Assembly (NCBI GenBank): GCA_965237525.1
Contig: CBDEFO010000003.1
Location: forward strand, 32,001 to 96,000
Direction of reading: 5' to 3'
Length of the DNA: 64,000 nucleotides
Source of the DNA: Candidatus Latescibacterota bacterium
GTDB lineage: Bacteria; Latescibacterota; CBDEFO01
In this document: positions 3,888 through 37,746 of the stretch, in pieces
Layout: each line of letters starts with the position of its first letter
Numbering within the stretch: the first letter of the stretch is position 1
Translations under genes and position numbers: made by a program
Notes under the pieces: generated by a model
Told to the model about the DNA's origin: nothing
Seen by the model: only the letters and a program-made list of their open reading frames with translations
Databases searched by the model: none

Positions 3888-5426
3888 TTACGCGTAAAGC
3901 GTGAGTTCCTTCAATTTGTCTTCAGGAGGTGCGGGAAAGAGCAGGCTCGCTAGATAGCCTGCCAGGCAACCTGTGACCGTGCAGAGTCCATCGAGCCAGA
4001 CCCAGTTGATAGAAAGCGCATCGGGGTCTATCCACGGTTTCATAAGTCCTGGAAATCCGCTGAAACTCAATGCCAGCAAGACTGCTGCAAATGCGCCGAT
4101 CAGCACCCCAGCTGTGTTGCAGCGCTTTGTGAAGACGCCGAGGATAAAGAAAACCCCCATCGCGGGTAGAACTAGGAGGTTGAGCTTGCCCATTCGTTCA
4201 AGTACTGTTGTATCGCTGTGGCCACTTTGCCACAGAGCAAAGAGCAGCACCAGGAGGCCCCAACCGAGCGTGACGTAGCGAGAACTGGATACATAATGCT
4301 TTTCAGAGGCACTGCGCACTAAATACCGCTTGTAAAAGTCGCTGATCGTTATGCTGCTCATCGAGTTCACCGCCGAGTCAAATGTGGACATCATCGCCGC
4401 CAACAAGCCCGCCATAATCACACCCCGCACCAGAATCGGCAGATGACCGACGACATAGCGGGCCATCACCTCGTCGGCCTGTGTGATCATCGCCTTGGCC
4501 TCCGGATTCACCTGGTAATACGCGATAAATCCCCAGGCAACGGACACAGCCAGGAGCATAAAGATCACCTCGACACCTGCGAGTCCTACGAGCGCCTTGA
4601 ACATATTTCGCTTTGTGCCTGTCGCCAATAGTCGCTGAATGCGGACTTGATTGGAACCGAACATGAACACTTCCACTATCTTTGAAAGCAAGATGGCCCA
4701 TATCGTCGCTTCCACGTGCAGGCTGAATTCAGCGGAAAAGAGTTTTGTCTTTGGATAGCCTGATTCTTCGGATATCACAGAGGAAGCGATGTTGTAGATT
4801 TCCGTTGGTTGCCAGTTAAAGTATTTAAGTAACAACAAACCTATCACGATGTAAGCAAAGACGAAAATAGTCGCCTGAGCAACATCAGTCCAGATGACCG
4901 CGCGTGAGCCACCAAGCATGGTGTAAGATGTACCCAATACAACGATTCCAAAGAGGCAATACACGACCGGCACGCCGGTCACTGCATTGAATGCCATCGA
5001 GGCAGCCACCAGACCATTGCCAACCCAGAAGATCATCTGAATCGGGAATATCGTGGCGCCAAAGGTGCGCAGCCCCGGGTGGAAACGTCGCTCCAGATAC
5101 TCATAGATAGACAACATCCGCAGTCGGTCCCAGATAGGCACCCAGAAATATGCTGCAAGGGGCAGGCTGACCATGACCAGCAAGGTAGAGCCGAAAAACC
5201 ATCGGCTGTCCTTCTGGTATATCCAGCCGCATATTCCCAGAAAACTAATCGGGCTCGTTGTGGTAGCGTATAACGACAGTGCGACCGCCCACCAGGGTAG
5301 AGAGCCGCTGGCTAGGAAGTACTCCTTCAGTGACTTTTGCCGACCGGAACACACGATCGCAAGCACAAGTACACCGATCAAATACCCCACAATAACGAAG
5401 TAGTCCCAAACAGAGAGTTGATTCAT
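3888..5426 (-). CDS. Sodium:solute symporter (SSS family, sugar/sialic-acid transporter-like)
   Basis: 512 aa polytopic; EYFLA, SIYEYLERRF, GGSRAVIWTDVAQ, AAMMSTFDSAVNS motifs. Confidence 0.9.
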   Translation of the reverse strand: MNQLSVWDYFVIVGYLIGVLVLAIVCSGRQKSLKEYFLASGSLPWWAVALSLYATTTSPISFLGICGWIYQKDSRWFFGSTLLVMVSLPLAAYFWVPIWDRLRMLSIYEYLERRFHPGLRTFGATIFPIQMIFWVGNGLVAASMAFNAVTGVPVVYCLFGIVVLGTSYTMLGGSRAVIWTDVAQATIFVFAYIVIGLLLLKYFNWQPTEIYNIASSVISEESGYPKTKLFSAEFSLHVEATIWAILLSKIVEVFMFGSNQVRIQRLLATGTKRNMFKALVGLAGVEVIFMLLAVSVAWGFIAYYQVNPEAKAMITQADEVMARYVVGHLPILVRGVIMAGLLAAMMSTFDSAVNSMSSITISDFYKRYLVRSASEKHYVSSSRYVTLGWGLLVLLFALWQSGHSDTTVLERMGKLNLLVLPAMGVFFILGVFTKRCNTAGVLIGAFAAVLLALSFSGFPGLMKPWIDPDALSINWVWLDGLCTVTGCLAGYLASLLFPAPPEDKLKELTLYA

Positions 5427-5492
5427 TGGTTATTGAAAAATCGCATAGCTAGCACTCTACGTGTTGTTCGCCATGGACAGGTCCCATTGACC

Positions 5493-5757
5493 TTACGGCG
5501 ACGGATCAAAAATGTTGCGGAGATCAGAGTCAAATGCCGCATCGCGAATTGTCCGATCGGTGTTTACGGGTTCAGGGTTCAGCCGCCAGAGCACCAGCCC
5601 GATGTCTCTCGGGGTGAAGTGGTTCTCCACTTTCGGACCGGCATGACTACGGTATCCGGTGCCGATGACGGTGATGATTGACCCGTCCGGAAGCAGCGTC
5701 CACGAGGTGGCCTGGCTGCTTGCCTTCCAGTGATGCGACTCCTTACGGTTACCTACT
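5493..5757 (-). pseudogene. C-terminal fragment of a BNR/sialidase-fold gene ending ...RNIFDPSP*
   Basis: Reads VGNRKESHHWKASSQATSWTLLPDGSIITVIGTGYRS...RDIGLVLWRLNPEPVNTDRTIRDAAFDSDLRNIFDPSP*, closely similar to 13792..14060; no start. Confidence 0.85.
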
Positions 5758-28852: not shown

Positions 28853-29885
28853 CTAATCCCGCCAGTCGAAAATGACGCCCAACATGGACTTCTCTCTGCG
28901 GTAGGCCATCTCGTAGACCTGGGCCATCTCCGTATAGTGGAAGCGGTGAGTGATCAGGCGTTTGGGCTCCAGGCGACCCTCTTCCATCAGGGAGAGAATA
29001 TAGGCACAGTCCCGATCCGCTGCGAAGCGGTCTTCCACCATAGTAGCGTATTGGGTGTCGTTCGGGTATAAATAACCCGCTGATCCCGAGACAGCGATCA
29101 GTGAAATACCTTTGATATAGAAAAGATCCATAGCCAACGGATTAAAATCCAGCGGGGTCTCTCCGCGACCGAGGAGGCTGACGATGGAAACGCGACCGTT
29201 TGGCCGCACGATCTGCAGGGCTGTACGGTAAGCAGGCCAGGGATTCGCAGTGAGGATAACCAGGTCGAGGCCCACGCCGTCAGTAAAGGTGTCCAGCTTT
29301 GCTTCGAGGTCAGGATCGTCGGACATGTAGGCGGCATGAGCACCCATCCGATCTGCCATTTCCAGGCGGATGGGGCTATTGCCAAGACTCACCACACGGG
29401 CTCCGAAGAGCGGGCCGAGAGCAACCGCACCCAGACCGAGCACACCCCAGACCGACGACCGCTACATTTTCCCCCGGTTGGAAATGGGCTTTACGATAAC
29501 AGAGGGAGCTGAGAGCGTAGAGGTGGGCAAAGACAGCATCCTCTGAATCCACGCCATCCGGGACTTTGACCATGCTGGCTGCCTGGTCGGTTATGTATTC
29601 GGATTGATGAGGCTGCCTGGTCACCACTCGATCTCCCACCTGAAAACGGGTGACCTGTTTGCCCACATCCTTCACAATGCCCAGATTGCTGTCGCCGACC
29701 CATCTGGGGTAGTCGGGTGCGCCCGGGACCCTTTCGGCTCCTTCGTAGTTGCCGCGGTCGGTACCGATTTTAAAAGCGGAAATCTGAGTCTTGATCCAGA
29801 TTTCGTCTGGCTTCAGATTGTCAGTGTTCAGGGACTGCTCCTCAAGGCGAAGGTCTCTCGGACCGTGAAGAATAGCAATTTTCAT
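28853..29885 (-). CDS. Medium-chain (zinc-binding ADH family) dehydrogenase, frameshifted near 29445
   Basis: MKIAILHGPRDL...VGDRVV...VAVVGLG|VLGLGA; one extra G in a GGGG run breaks the GxGxxG motif; C-terminal LITHRF. Confidence 0.82.
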
Positions 29886-29934
29886 GGGGGATCTCCTTAG
29901 CCCGAATAATTCACACAAAAAGGCCGTGTATTAA

Positions 29935-31453
29935 AAGCCTTGTGAAATAGTTATGTCCCAGGCAGCGTCTGAAGCGCCGATTATGGGTCAAAGAGTAGCA
30001 TATCGTATCGTTTTGCTGTGGAATAAGCAAAATAGTCTTATCAGAGTTCTGGTCAGCAAGGAACAGGAGCTGTTTGAAGAACAGGATGCACTGTCTTTGA
30101 CAGACAGGGCACACATAGACGCTTTCCCCCTTCTTATGAAAGATACAAGCCTCTTGAGATTCTGTACTGTTGCAACAAGATTCAACTGTTCATTCAGTGA
30201 GGCTGGTCCTCTGTAACGGGCTCGTCCCATACCGTATTGTTGCCTGGCTTCAGCAAAGATATGTTCACTGCGTTTACGGAGTCTCCGGGAGAGTTTGTAG
30301 TCAGCTGTTAATGAGATAGACCGTGCATGATTTCTGGCTTTCGCCTCTCGCACTTTTCTATCCCGTTCGGCCTGAATATGTGCTGAATTTGTCTTGTTTT
30401 TCCATGTAGGAATCGGTTCAATCTTCTCATCGGCTCGCAGAGGAATATGGGGTATGATTCCCCGGTCAAGTACATCAGCGATAAAATTACCAGAACCGTA
30501 ACCGGTATCGGCACTAAGTGTCTGAATGTCTTTGGGCATGGTCTATGTTTCAAGGTCATCTACCATCTTAAGGGCACTTTCGGGCTCTGCTGTCCCTGTC
30601 GCCTGCGTGCCCTGAGTCTCAAGGATTACTCTGCTTTTTGTGTCGATCAGATCATGGCCCATAAACGAGAGAAAAGCCCCTTTGCCCTTCGATTTGCTGT
30701 ATAAGCGCGCGTCGGGGTCTGTAGTCGAACGGTGTGTTTGGTTCGTCCACTTTTCACCATGAAAGTCTTTATCCTGAGGATGCCCGGACCTACCCTTTGT
30801 CTTATCACCTTCAAAACCGATTCCCTTGAGATAATCATCAAGAGAAAAAGGGGGTTCTATCGGCTCAATACTTTTCACTGAAGCATCAGCTTGTATCTGA
30901 GTGCCGTCGACACTAAGGTGTTTACCGCTCACAACACCGACATCTATGCAACACTGGACTACCTGACGCATTATCCGTTCAAACAACCCACTGGATGCCC
31001 ACTTGTGATTGCGAAGCTTGTTGATCGTGCTCCTATCCGGAACCGCATCATCAAATGTCTGATGACAAAACAACCGATATGCCGCATGCATCCCCACTTC
31101 CTGACAGAGCCGATTCTCACTCAAATTATACAGATAGCCAATAAGGATCATTCGAACAACTAATTCAGGATCAATACCGGGTCTGCCATTGTCAGGGCAA
31201 TAACAATCTGATACAACGTCTCGTACAAATGAAAAATCAACTGCCTCATCAATCTGACGAAGGATATGATCCTCGGGAACTAAATCCTCCATCTGAAAAT
31301 AGTGAAACATCGGATTTGTCTGTTCCTGCTTTTGTGGGGTCATTGTTTCCTCCATGTATAATATTATCAATAACATAATATAATACATCGGAGCTGCTTT
31401 ATCAATGCTTGTTCTATACTACTTTCTGAATCTAAGGGTTTTTCACAAGGCTT
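29935..31453 (-). mobile_element. IS1182-like insertion sequence, copy A (1519 bp)
   Basis: Terminal inverted repeats AAGCCTTGTGAAA/TTTCACAAGGCTT; TTAA duplicated on both flanks; near-identical to three other copies. Confidence 0.92.
29988..31343 (-). pseudogene. DDE transposase with premature TAG (TAC>TAG at 30543)
   Basis: Split ORFs 30543..31388 and 29988..30539; the other copies have TAC at this codon. Confidence 0.9.
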
Positions 31454-33427: not shown

Positions 33428-33846
33428 TCACTTGTCCATAGATCTGATTCTTGCGGACAGGACTGTTGCTATGTTTGTCATGACTTTAAGTGCGGCCTTC
33501 GGCTCCTCTTGGGCGAATTTGTCGTATTCTTCCTATTGAATATAAGGATCTGGGAGTCCACAGCAGCTTTTGCTTTGCCACTGCGGGCTCGGGTGTCTAC
33601 GAACGCCATATCTCCGAACATATGCCCTTGGTGCATTGAAATCACAAACTTCATGCCTTCGCCTCTATTTATCTGTATGTCCACAACCCCTGATCTAACA
33701 ATAAAGAGGGCGTCATTTAGCTCTCCCTGTTCGAAGACTTTTTCGCCCGCAGTGTATTCCACGTCCCTTGCTAGTCCTGCTAACTTATCCGCTTCTTCAT
33801 CGTTCAGGCCTCGGCCTAAATCTGTGGCTCTCAGAAATTCAGTCAT
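33428..33846 (-). pseudogene. Cyclic nucleotide-binding domain protein, frameshifted near 33530
   Basis: GEKVFEQGE, LFIVRSGVV, GHMFGDMAFVD..RSGKAKA; the alternative frame continues EYDKFAQEEPKAALKVMTNIATVLSARIRSMDK*. Confidence 0.75.
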
Positions 33847-34059
33847 GTCGTTCACATGTACCCCCAGTTTGAAAGAGGAGACTTGTACCATTTTCTCATC
33901 TGGGAGGGGAACACCTACTAAACCATCTCCTCAAATTTTGAAAATATTGACCTCCTCACGTGTCCGTCACGCTTCACTACTAAAACTTTCAATATGTTAT
34001 TCAACTGCGATATACAAAAGACTTTTCAAGTTCAAGAGCTAAATCTTACTTTGGTATCC

Positions 34060-34405: not shown

Positions 34406-34552
34406 AAAGATTATGGCAGAACACCGCCACTCGTGCGTGGCGGATGAATACCACTGGAGGAGGAGGGCATCTTCCAAGGGTGAGGTTTGAAGCCCCGCCC
34501 GCGGAGTGCCGATGTCGAGCCGCGCCGTAGGCGGTAGGCGACGTGGTTTCAC
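34406..34552 (+). mobile_element. Putative non-autonomous IS200/IS605-type miniature element (PATE-like)
   Basis: TTTAT, then hairpin CCGCCAC-TCGTGC-GTGGCGG-ATGAAT (left-end-like) and GAAGCCCCGCC...GGCG...GGTTTCAC (right-end-like); no coding capacity. Confidence 0.4.
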
Positions 34553-35490
34553 TCTGTCACCTGCTTGACGAGTCGGAACTTCTGAATGCGGTTATTCCCC
34601 CAATCTGTTACGTAGACGTTGTCGTCTTTGTCTGTTGCCACATCTGTCGGACGTTCGAACTTTCCGTCGCCGTTCCCCTTCCTTCCCCACTGGAGAAGGA
34701 AGTGTCCATCGCTGCCAAAGACCTGGATGCGGTGATTGTAAAAATCCGCTACGTAGATCCTATCTTCTCCGTCTAAGCCTATACCGGTGGACACGTTGAA
34801 CCTGCCTTCATCTGTTCCGTAACCTCCCCAGCTCGTAAGAAGTTGCCCTTCACGCGTGAACTTGACAATCCTATGATTGTAGGCGTCAGCCACGTAGACA
34901 GTACCGTCAGAACCGACAGCTAGATCGGTGGGGTAATTAAATTGTCCGTCGCCTTCTCCGTGCTCTCCCCATTGACGGACGAATTCGCCATTTCTATCAA
35001 ACTTTTCTATCCTGTAGTTGTAGAAATCAGCTACATAGATATTCCCCTGGCTGTCCACAGATACGCCCGCCGGGGCGTCAAAATAAGTGTCCTCCTCTTG
35101 CCGCCGGCCAATAGTCCCGATAGAACTCCCGGAGGGGTTGAAGACCTGTATCCTGTCGTTGAAATATTCTGCTACATAGAGCTTACTATCCTTCATTTCA
35201 ATATGCATGGGACGCGCAAGCTCTCCACGGGCATTGCCCTCTTTTCCCCATTCGGCTAGGAAATTGCCCAGTATGTCAAACTTTTGAATGCGATTGTTCC
35301 CACTATCGGAGACATAGACACTTCCGACATCGTCAACAGCGATCCCTATAGGGCCCTGGAACTGCCCTGGCATTTCTCCTTCTGTTCCCCATTTCTGGAC
35401 GAAGACGAATTGCAGTTTGTCCTCTTTGGAACAGTAAAGATGGCCTGTCGAAAGGATCAATATTATCAGCGACAAGATTGGTTGTCTCAT
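34549..35490 (-). CDS. Exported NHL-repeat six-bladed beta-propeller protein
   Basis: Six F/LxxPxGIAVDxxGxVYVADxxNxRIQKF repeats; N-terminal signal/lipoprotein-like leader. Confidence 0.92.
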   Translation of the reverse strand: MRQPILSLIILILSTGHLYCSKEDKLQFVFVQKWGTEGEMPGQFQGPIGIAVDDVGSVYVSDSGNNRIQKFDILGNFLAEWGKEGNARGELARPMHIEMKDSKLYVAEYFNDRIQVFNPSGSSIGTIGRRQEEDTYFDAPAGVSVDSQGNIYVADFYNYRIEKFDRNGEFVRQWGEHGEGDGQFNYPTDLAVGSDGTVYVADAYNHRIVKFTREGQLLTSWGGYGTDEGRFNVSTGIGLDGEDRIYVADFYNHRIQVFGSDGHFLLQWGRKGNGDGKFERPTDVATDKDDNVYVTDWGNNRIQKFRLVKQVTE

Positions 35491-35503: not shown

Positions 35504-35782
35504 TCAAAGTATCCTCGGCAACCACATGACGATCACCAAGGCGGTGGAGACCCATACTACAAGCACGCTCAGTCTGTGCCCGTGCCGCTTTACGTACACC
35601 AGATAGTGCGCTCTTGCCAAAAGCAGGACAGACAGAGTAAGCAAGAAAGGATAAAACTTTATCGCAAGGAACCTTGCAGTAGCTACCCCTGCTAACCCGA
35701 GCAGGGCAAAGATCGCCGGGACTATTCAACACCAGGGCAGTGCCGCAAGAAGGGCCATCAGGCTCGATGCCTTTGTCTTCAT
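35504..35782 (-). CDS. MerT/MerF-like heavy-metal transporter, probable selenoprotein (Cys-Sec motif)
   Basis: Hand translation MKTKASSLMALLAALPWC(TGA)IVPAIFALLGLAGVATARFLAIKFYPFLLTLSVLLLARAHYLVYVKRHGHRLSVLVVWVSTALVIVMWLPRIL* (92 codons, three hydrophobic segments). It fills the operon gap exactly, and the TGA at 35726-35728 sits at the second Cys of the MerT CC pair. Confidence 0.8.
35687..35706 (-). promoter_or_regulatory. Bacterial SECIS-like hairpin
   Basis: CCCUGCU-CGGGUU-AGCAGGG: perfect 7-bp stem, G among the first two loop bases, loop starts 26 nt after the UGA. Confidence 0.7.
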
Positions 35783-35794
35783 TGTTCTAATACC

Positions 35795-36334
35795 TTACTT
35801 AGTAGCAGAGGACAACATCTTAAACTGTCCAATAGACAGGACATAAGGATGCCCCGCATGGCCTTCGACTTTTTCCTTGGAGAGCGTGCCAGTTATCCGA
35901 AGGAGCTTGTCCTCGCCTTTGAGCGCCTCTTTGACCTTCTTCAACTGCTCGTTCTGAGCGATCAGAAAGACGTTCGCGTTCTTTGCAAACTTTAAAACTG
36001 TTCTGCCATTATGCTCGGATATACGGCCTTTAACCGTAATCGCGATGTCTCTTGGGGTAAAGCCGCCGTCCACCACAGCCTTCTTTACATCTTCGATGGA
36101 GAGGTTCTTTTTCTCCTTCACAGTCAGTTTGGCTACTCCCTGATCCACTTTGATCTCTAACTTCTCAACCCCTTCTACTCTCTTGAGCTTCTTCTCCAAG
36201 CCGTAGGCGCAAAAAGGGCACGAAAGACCGTCCACCTTAACTGTAGCCTCTTCTATCTGAGCCGGACTCTCCACAGGTACAGCCGACACAATAATAACTG
36301 AGAGCAACAAAGAAAGAATTCTTTTTATCGTCAT
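35795..36334 (-). CDS. Periplasmic heavy-metal-associated (HMA, MerP-like) protein with C-terminal extension
   Basis: Signal peptide; VDGLSCPFCAYGLEKKL; C-terminal HAGH; RBS AGGAGG. Confidence 0.88.
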   Translation of the reverse strand: MTIKRILSLLLSVIIVSAVPVESPAQIEEATVKVDGLSCPFCAYGLEKKLKRVEGVEKLEIKVDQGVAKLTVKEKKNLSIEDVKKAVVDGGFTPRDIAITVKGRISEHNGRTVLKFAKNANVFLIAQNEQLKKVKEALKGEDKLLRITGTLSKEKVEGHAGHPYVLSIGQFKMLSSATK

Positions 36335-36384: not shown

Positions 36385-37330
36385 CTAAAAGATCAGCCAT
36401 CGAATCCCGCTTACAAAGGCAAAGTCCCTCCCAAGTTGGGTGCCGTTCAGGTCCTGGAGCAGGGGGATCTGTATCGATGTATCGATGATTAATGTGCTCA
36501 GAGGGATGTATTGTATCCCGGGAGAGAGACAAAATGTGTCCGCCGGAGTCCTCGACTGTCTGTCCACTTGCCTCGTTCCTCCGGTTGAACTGCCCGTTTG
36601 CCTCTAAATAAAGAGTGGCACAAGACGATGGATAGGTCTCATAGACCGAAGGATATATTCTGTATCCGACCGCAAGATCGTAATTTAAAGCATCTCCGAA
36701 TCTGTATTCGTCCTCCTCCCTTTTGAATGTGTAGATGGCGTCTGTGTTGATCCCGAGTCTTCCTACGCTGTGGGTTAAGATAAGTCCGGCTGAGTAATCT
36801 ATGGAGCCTGTTCCCAATTGTAGCCCTCTGGGTAGAGGTTCGCCCAACTCATCGATCTCGTCGTGGTCTCCGATGGGAAGTTTCAGTCCTCCCTTAAACG
36901 TAATTCTGGTCGTCTTTCGATGAGCGTCCCGTTGAAGGAGTTGATATTTGAATAAGAGAGAAAGATCCCCAAAGCCGCTGTCAGACAGAGTGCGTCTTAT
37001 CCCGCCCTGAACGAGACTCATCTCCTTATCCAGATACGGGATCGCTGCGGCGACTACCATTCTGTTTGGAATCAATTCGTAGGGAATTATAATAGGAACA
37101 GCCACAACTTGTACCTCACGGTCCAAAGGATCAGAGACTTTCGTACTACCCTTTAAGAGCTTCGATTTCTTTGTCGTTTTAACGAACGTCCTGAGCGCAG
37201 CACCCTGGAGGCCGACCACGAACGCTGTCTCAGTGTTGATCGGTGGCCCCTGAGCAAATGTCCCATTTGGATAAACCATATGAAGAACAACAGAGCACAT
37301 AACAGATAACAAAACGATGTATCTTCTCAT
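36385..37330 (-). CDS. Outer-membrane beta-barrel (MetA-pathway/transporter-like), frameshift near 36525
   Basis: Signal peptide, SGFGDLSL, GLKLPIG, QLGTGS motifs; the true C-terminus SPGIQY...GIRWLIF* (terminal Phe) is in another frame after a short (TC)n run. Confidence 0.75.
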
Positions 37331-37376
37331 AGACACCTCCTTCCTAAGATTACTCCTAAGACCCTCTGACATTTCG

Positions 37377-37673
37377 TTATCTTGCGAACTTATAGATGAT
37401 GTCCATCAATTGGTCGTATATTCTATCAGCCTCTTGGCTGTCTTGCGACCTGATGGAATTGGTGACACAATTTTCCAGGTAGTTTCTCATCATAATCTTT
37501 CCCACCTGCTTTAGACCCTCCTCTGCCGCTGCTATTTGGGTCAGTACCTCCACGCAAGGGCGCTCCTTTTCTATCATGCCCTGTAATCCTCTCATCTGGC
37601 CTTCAATAGATTTAAGGCGTCTGACTGTCTGGTCCTTGCGATCTTGTGAGATTAGCTTGATTTCTACGATCAT
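37377..37673 (-). CDS. csoR: CsoR/RcnR-family metal-sensing repressor
   Basis: RRLKSIEGQMRGLQGMIEKERPCVEVLTQIAA...NYLENCV. Confidence 0.88.
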   Translation of the reverse strand: MIVEIKLISQDRKDQTVRRLKSIEGQMRGLQGMIEKERPCVEVLTQIAAAEEGLKQVGKIMMRNYLENCVTNSIRSQDSQEADRIYDQLMDIIYKFAR

Positions 37674-37689: not shown

Positions 37690-37746
37690 TACACCCCCAC
37701 CCCCTGAGGGTATATAGAATATAAGAAACAACTTTAGCGATGTCAA
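37690..37746 (-). promoter_or_regulatory. Sigma70 promoter with CsoR-type operator
   Basis: TTGACA-17 nt-TATATT, followed by ATACCCTCAGGGGGTGGGGGTGT (C/G tracts typical of CsoR boxes). Confidence 0.75.

Follow-up and report, generated by a model that had tools for sequence, protein, structure and literature searches.

A predicted Cys-Sec MerT-like membrane protein encoded across an in-frame UGA in a Candidatus Latescibacterota bacterium

Background

Between the genes of an HMA-domain protein and an NHL-repeat protein, the window (the whole stretch of 64,000 nucleotides analysed here, from a Candidatus Latescibacterota bacterium) has a gap filled by a reading frame with a TGA codon inside it. 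The question that this locus raises is whether the frame is a broken gene or one whose UGA is read as selenocysteine (Sec), and, in the latter case, what a short membrane protein carrying such a residue would do. The explanation that we favour overall, at a probability of roughly three in four, is a Sec-decoded protein similar to the mercuric transporter MerT, which would take a soft metal from the HMA protein.

Sec-containing proteins resembling mercuric transporters have appeared in comparative surveys before, as the first-pass annotation of this DNA had noted. In the portions of the sources available to us, a putative mercuric transport selenoprotein is listed in PMC9312934 and PMC13188914, and Haft and Gwadz (bioRxiv 10.1101/2022.07.06.499078), who found no selenoprotein in the characterised mercury-resistance families, name a small MerT-related set with a CU motif. 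The motif of ABB16073.1, annotated as "putative mercuric transport protein", is given as C/SxxU and not CU in the corresponding part of the 2026 review (PMC13188914).

Results and discussion

A reading frame absent from the list of genes

The frame, here called P0001 (Table 1), lies 12 nt after the stop of the HMA gene, which ends at 35795, and 13 nt before the NHL gene, which starts at 35490. It is absent from the list of open reading frames made under table 11 and reached the cut-off of no curated family, in line with the earlier expectation that standard annotation would miss it. The single internal stop is a TGA at codon 19, directly after TGT (LPWC*IVP), beyond which the frame stays open for 73 codons. 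We thus recover the 92-codon frame between the HMA and NHL genes, and its one interruption in the first transmembrane segment (TM1), as they were first described. The terminal TGA is a true stop, and the relatives in genomes G038 and G040 have TAG at the same place. The description of three transmembrane segments holds in part: three hydrophobic stretches are seen by hydropathy, whereas a low-confidence structure model (pLDDT 60, pTM 0.28) gives four helices. A Foldseek search with that model returned 0 matches, a sequence search of the PDB gave chance hydrophobic matches only, and a search for a plasmid match found none.

Table 1. Positions in the window of P0001, its recoding signals and the neighbouring operon features
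Feature	Position	Strand	Basis or remark
92-aa MerT-like membrane protein (P0001), predicted Sec19	35504..35782	minus	92 codons + terminal TGA
TGT-TGA, Cys18-Sec19 (Sec predicted), vicinal CC site of MerT-type TM1	35726..35731	minus	
Predicted bacterial SECIS hairpin, 7-bp stem, loop CGGGUU at 35699-35694	35687..35706	minus	-10.9 kcal/mol
HMA-domain protein, N-terminal hydrophobic leader, GLSCPFC motif (MerP/CopZ-like)	35795..36334	minus	Pfam HMA over cut-off; CopZ/MerP below
MetA-pathway-like (PF13557) protein	36385..37372	minus	frameshifted near 36521 in this strain
CsoR/RcnR-family repressor, C-Y-C	37377..37673	minus	PF02583 over cut-off
Sigma-70-like promoter (11/12), then G/C-tract	37718..37746	minus	consensus match
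NHL-repeat beta-propeller protein, last gene of likely operon	34549..35490	minus	
Terminator-like hairpin after NHL gene	34413..34430	minus	consensus match; 4 found vs 2.8 in shuffles

Relationship to MerT and other mercury transporters

The best NCBIfam match of P0001 is merT_RC607 (NF033560), with E 1.1e-13 and 51.3 bits against a cut-off of 130; Pfam MerT (PF02411) gives no match and MerC a faint one (E 0.5). Among 42 members of the family, 35 match NF033560, 7 weakly match NF045683 and 2 match MerF. A profile of these 42 members aligns with seven canonical MerT-like proteins over its full length (99.4%, E 2e-21); it lacks the cytoplasmic loop in which several of these proteins have their second Cys pair. 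The family carries its own signature, WCCxxP plus RAHY, and in a quick tree it forms one side of a branch (support 97) against six MerT-like outgroups. Taken from the sub-cut-off scores, the full-length homology and this signature, the sequence comparison indicates that P0001 is built like MerT, and probably acts like it, while standing outside the curated MerT, MerF and MerC families. The initial label of a MerT-like transporter therefore stands as regards the homology and the TM1 pair; it does not extend to curated membership, as every MerT and MerF cut-off is missed, and mercury is a possible substrate.

Like MerT of the RC607 type and of Tn501 and Tn21 (PF02411, NF010314), P0001 has a vicinal pair followed by xxP in TM1 and three hydrophobic segments. 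It differs in that its second Cys is a predicted Sec, in that C18 and U19 are its only thiol or selenol sites and a cytoplasmic pair of the Cys76/Cys82 type is missing, in its distinct signature, and in the lack of merA from its genome. MerF, MerC and MerE likewise transport Hg, are small and carry paired Cys residues in TM1, and P0001 matches them only faintly. The MerT/CopZ fusion-like selenoprotein family NF045683 and ABB16073.1 share with this locus a MerT-like domain, Sec and an HMA partner; NF045683, however, describes a fusion of 235 positions, which P0001 does not match at E<=1, and the HMA protein here is separate, with a CxxC. No member of NF045683 over its cut-off of 375 was found in the 301 genomes searched for comparison, and the search turned up only merT and merP genes lying next to each other, their TGA being a true stop. 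The CU-motif MerT selenoproteins (WP_250634603.1; Haft and Gwadz), compared through their description in the available part of that preprint, are also MerT-related, computationally predicted and marked by a Cys-Sec dipeptide.

The window's own genome (G000) also holds a separate CC-type MerT-HMA fusion (G000:C8:903405-906295), whose neighbours we take to be a WYL-like regulator, a CopZ N-terminal-like gene and a second HMA gene.

Operon and neighbourhood

The operon in the window runs from the promoter through the CsoR-family repressor, the PF13557 protein, the HMA protein and P0001 to the NHL protein. The G/C-tract after the promoter presumably resembles CsoR operators, and we assume that the PF13557 protein is an outer-membrane barrel. 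In the repressor, Tyr replaces the His of the C-H-C copper fingerprint, which the paper defining it warns is not predictive of the metal (PMC4235346). The barrel gene is intact in G009 (315 aa); in the window two bases are missing at 36521, in a short TC run, and they are present in contigs of sequencing runs X2, X3 and X6, so that the frameshift is either a strain-specific slip or an assembly error. Across 11 related loci, a barrel-like gene occurs in eight and an HMA-like gene in eight, and the NHL gene also adjoins the P0001 homologue in G009 and in the loci L035 and L036. In each of the four loci where MerR regulators were tested, the best score was to Hg-MerR, below the cut-off. Locus L035, where the homologue has Cys in place of Sec, carries MerF over its cut-off and a MerB-like gene.

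Several further features of these regions were observed. In G009 (L032:6896-8468) a second barrel-like gene and a second HMA gene, absent in the window, lie between the HMA and Sec genes. The C-TGA copy in G040 (L028 / L034) and a canonical merR-merT-HMA set are about 2.5 kb apart. Downstream genes in the window (28853-29918, 29988-31388 and 33478-33891) look broken in comparison with G009, or split. By our reading, an alcohol-dehydrogenase-like gene is spread over two frames (G009 has it as one 343-aa ORF), a transposase-like element is divided between two ORFs, and the end of a cyclic-nucleotide-binding-like gene is shifted.

Metal and mechanism

P0001 is predicted to handle a soft metal of the Hg, Cu or Ag class. 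Mercury in particular is indicated by the Hg-MerR-like regulators and by MerF and the MerB-like gene in L035, and opposed by the missing MerA and the C-Y-C repressor, and we regard it as a tentative assignment, somewhat less likely than another metal. The best MerA (TIGR02053) score in G000, a genome 96.6% complete, is 322 against a cut-off of 454. Because MerA exceeds its cut-off in only two of the six carrier genomes, and not in G000, G009, G040 or G431, import for Hg reduction is unsupported here.

We propose that SelB and Sec-tRNA would bind a hairpin behind the UGA and insert Sec, and that the product would sit in the membrane with its N-terminus inside and three helices, as its positively charged N-terminus and loop 2, a pattern shared with MerT, suggest. 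The HMA protein is likely the metal donor. In the available part of PMC5715351, Cys24/Cys25 of MerT receive the ion from MerP, and MerT of Tn501 and Tn21 has a second, cytoplasmic Cys pair; by analogy, C18-U19 in TM1 would receive the ion from the CxxC of the HMA protein, and P0001 would likely pass it across the inner membrane. Since the cytoplasmic pair of Tn501 and Tn21 is missing in P0001, the conserved His59 in RAHY may be the ligand through which the ion leaves. Selenium is suggested as the main metal ligand by the members in which Asn stands in the first position and Sec in the second. If Sec is inserted, metal hand-off and transport by P0001 are quite probable.

The missing cytoplasmic pair and the missing MerA can also be read in another way, in which Sec is inserted and P0001 holds the ion tightly at selenium, as a trap or relay in the membrane, or acts as a redox or sensing partner of the HMA and NHL proteins. 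The very high affinity of selenium for mercury noted in the available text of bioRxiv 2022.07.06.499078 fits such a role, as does the setting of the Asn-Sec homologues, whose neighbours are not mer genes but a PLP decarboxylase and a radical SAM selenoprotein of the CUAEP-tail type. Homology to MerT-like transporters nevertheless extends over the full length of the protein, the merT_RC607 model, named mercuric transport protein, likewise spans only 97 positions, and a Cys version of the family adjoins MerF and the MerB-like gene. We consider this role unlikely, at well below the standing of metal transfer and transport.

The in-frame TGA among relatives

A TGA at codon 19 is kept in 10 distinct sequences, seven with C-TGA (the window, G009, G038, G040, G168/L024, G431/L051 and L038) and three with N-TGA (L040-L042), in which Asn takes the place of the adjacent Cys. 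The aligned TGA-bearing relatives are from 95 down to 27% identical to P0001. Within the phylum, close homologues occur in four of 168 genomes (G000, G009, G038 and G040), each with the TGA. The G168 group gave two strong matches among 401 genomes, L024 (Ca. Binataceae) and G431, and eight metagenome loci comprise two that repeat the G038 protein, one with C-TGA (L038), two with Cys-Cys (L035 and L036) and the three with Asn-TGA. Of 81 database homologues, 58 have CCxxP, 20 start just past the motif and three are otherwise atypical; the nearest named relative is 93% identical and belongs to Ca. Latescibacterota. The 20 short entries would be expected if gene callers restart behind the TGA, and contig ends could be another cause. 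The site thus carries either C or TGA in homologues, as the first-pass annotation had proposed to check.

In a quick tree (74 rows, 101 columns, 37 of 71 forks open), Sec needs six changes, of which only two are forced, and for this reason independent origins of Sec in several clades are suggested by the tree and not established.

A SECIS-like hairpin behind the TGA

The hairpin CCCTGCT-CGGGTT-AGCAGGG has a perfect stem of 7 bp and a loop of 6 nt. The stem and the loop CGGGUU are as first reported; the distance of 26 nt from the UGA, which had been given to the start of the hairpin, applies to the loop, because the stem starts 19 nt past the UGA. The accessible portion of PMC13188914 gives as bSECIS criteria a loop of 3-9 nt, a stem of 4-16 bp, a G in the first two loop positions, a spacing of 16-37 nt and MFE <= -7.5, and with 6 nt, 7 bp, 26 nt and -10.9 kcal/mol the P0001 hairpin lies within all four of these ranges.

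The same nucleotides encode A-L-L-G-L-A-G in P0001, conserved as A/S-L-L-G-L-A-G, and we therefore tested the hairpin by synonymous recoding with local codon usage. The same peptide gave 7/7 pairs in 1.6% of 2000 trials, and an equally stable hairpin at the SECIS position was found at only 0.8% of the 157,249 TGA triplets of G000. Folding of the whole region was no better than in shuffles (z between -0.6 and +0.7). Seven of the 10 TGA sequences have 7/7 pairs, with a synonymous-shuffle p of 0.008-0.046 each; the hairpin is weaker in G038 (6/7, p 0.11) and G040 (5/7, p 0.12), and in L038 it is shifted and a different strong hairpin is present. These p values may not simply be multiplied, because the register was chosen from the window and the relatives are not independent. 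In the Cys homologues L035 and L036 the hairpin is broken (3/7 and 2/7 pairs), these two, both from loci of 44% GC, being the only Cys controls with DNA. Three separate clades, with loci of 58-66% GC, have nearly the same 20 nt, and these include a TTA codon that is rare in the local sequence. Stem changes among the relatives compared are one-sided (U-A to U-G), with no two-sided compensatory change.

Decoding of the UGA

The genome of the window carries a complete set of Sec genes, with selA, selB, selC (tRNA-Sec) and selD all over their cut-offs, and its SelD gene itself has an in-frame TGA, whose SECIS shows no sequence resemblance to the P0001 hairpin. Outside G000, selA is present in all five other carrier genomes and selB in the four tested. 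Since selA is widespread in any case (131 of 168 genomes of the phylum, and 138 of 151 in the G168 sample), its co-occurrence with P0001 is weak evidence, and the Sec machinery is necessary for Sec decoding without discriminating in its favour.

From the alternation of TGA and Cys at one site, the hairpin and the Sec genes, we conclude that the UGA at codon 19 is very probably decoded as selenocysteine, giving a predicted C-U metal-binding site as first proposed. We are correspondingly confident that P0001 is a real, unannotated selenoprotein gene, of an already known kind, in a subfamily that current models miss. None of the observations that might have refuted it did so: the Sec genes are complete, independent assemblies keep the TGA, and those homologues that have TGA also have the hairpin, while those with TGC/TGT lack it.

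So early a Sec codon would truncate the protein under selenium shortage, and one might suppose that the UGA acts mainly as a selenium-dependent switch, leaving an 18-residue stub without selenium and affecting the downstream NHL gene; however, the downstream gene varies among the carriers and the Cys versions manage without a UGA, which makes this very improbable. Still less probable is a dead gene, its TGA due to nonsense mutation or to a fault of assembly. The barrel gene of the same operon is frameshifted in this strain and the C-TGA copy in G040 is frameshifted after codon 52, as might be expected of decay. The same TGA nevertheless recurs in the 10 sequences, from several clades and always at a Cys position, and is unchanged in contigs of runs X1, X2 and X3 (X1 being possibly the source of this DNA). 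Downstream of the TGA, the codon changes are 5 synonymous and 2 non-synonymous against G009, and 28 of each against G038; judged from these counts, the frame behind the TGA is under purifying selection, and the dead-gene explanation is largely refuted. A genome-wide reassignment of UGA to Trp, Gly or Cys, for which the open frame alone speaks, can be dismissed, as the sole TCA-anticodon tRNA in G000 is tRNA-Sec, P0001 ends in TGA where relatives use TAG, and homologues have Cys at codon 19 and not Trp or Gly.

Loci with Asn before the TGA

Directly upstream of the N-TGA homologues, on the plus strand, each of the three loci has a gene with a leader and a GAEMH-TGA-TGA-AG motif, the two neighbouring TGA codons being in frame (L040:961-1569, L041:3210-3830 and L042, with TGA TGA near 371-376). 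By its sequence it is a candidate for a Sec-Sec protein, with the TGA pair where an HMA-type metal motif would sit. The L040 protein shows weak similarity to the window's HMA protein, in the C-terminal part of the latter, and the two tandem-TGA proteins tested had no NCBIfam match. In L041 the radical SAM selenoprotein with the CUAEP tail scores over the NF040546 cut-off; genes of this selenoprotein and of the PLP-dependent decarboxylase-like type are found at L041:914-2419 and 4293-5582 and at L040:132-782. Judged from this gene content, the N-TGA loci are likely a multi-selenoprotein cluster.

Conclusions

It is possible, though we hold it as a tentative proposal, that these proteins form an uncatalogued short MerT-like subfamily separate from the published MerT selenoproteins. 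Its members would have exchanged their second Cys for Sec in several clades, would share a single SECIS sequence between distant lineages and, in some cases, would use selenium alone, as Asn-Sec, instead of the whole Cys pair; they would serve a soft-metal pathway of barrel, HMA and NHL proteins independent of MerA, as well as an N-U selenoprotein cluster with a tandem-UGA, HMA-like partner. In the literature covered, which is incomplete, neither a short stand-alone form nor an N-U form turned up; the subfamily may be listed in the BSepDB family table, in Haft and Tolstoy 2025 (mSystems) or in the J Bacteriol paper of Haft and Gwadz. The available parts of PMC1976440, PMC12013277 and PMC13326102 contain nothing on a short MerT-like selenoprotein subfamily, and names in Latescibacter* are unmentioned in the main texts of the 2026 review and of BSepDB, as far as these were accessible.

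The P0001 gene is invisible to standard callers, and 20 of the 81 database homologues look truncated at the motif, which marks a gap in annotation. Sec in transporters is rare, and this family has natural CC, CU and NU versions of one 92-residue protein. Such a set is a compact system in which the contribution of selenium to the binding and transfer of metals within a membrane could be studied.
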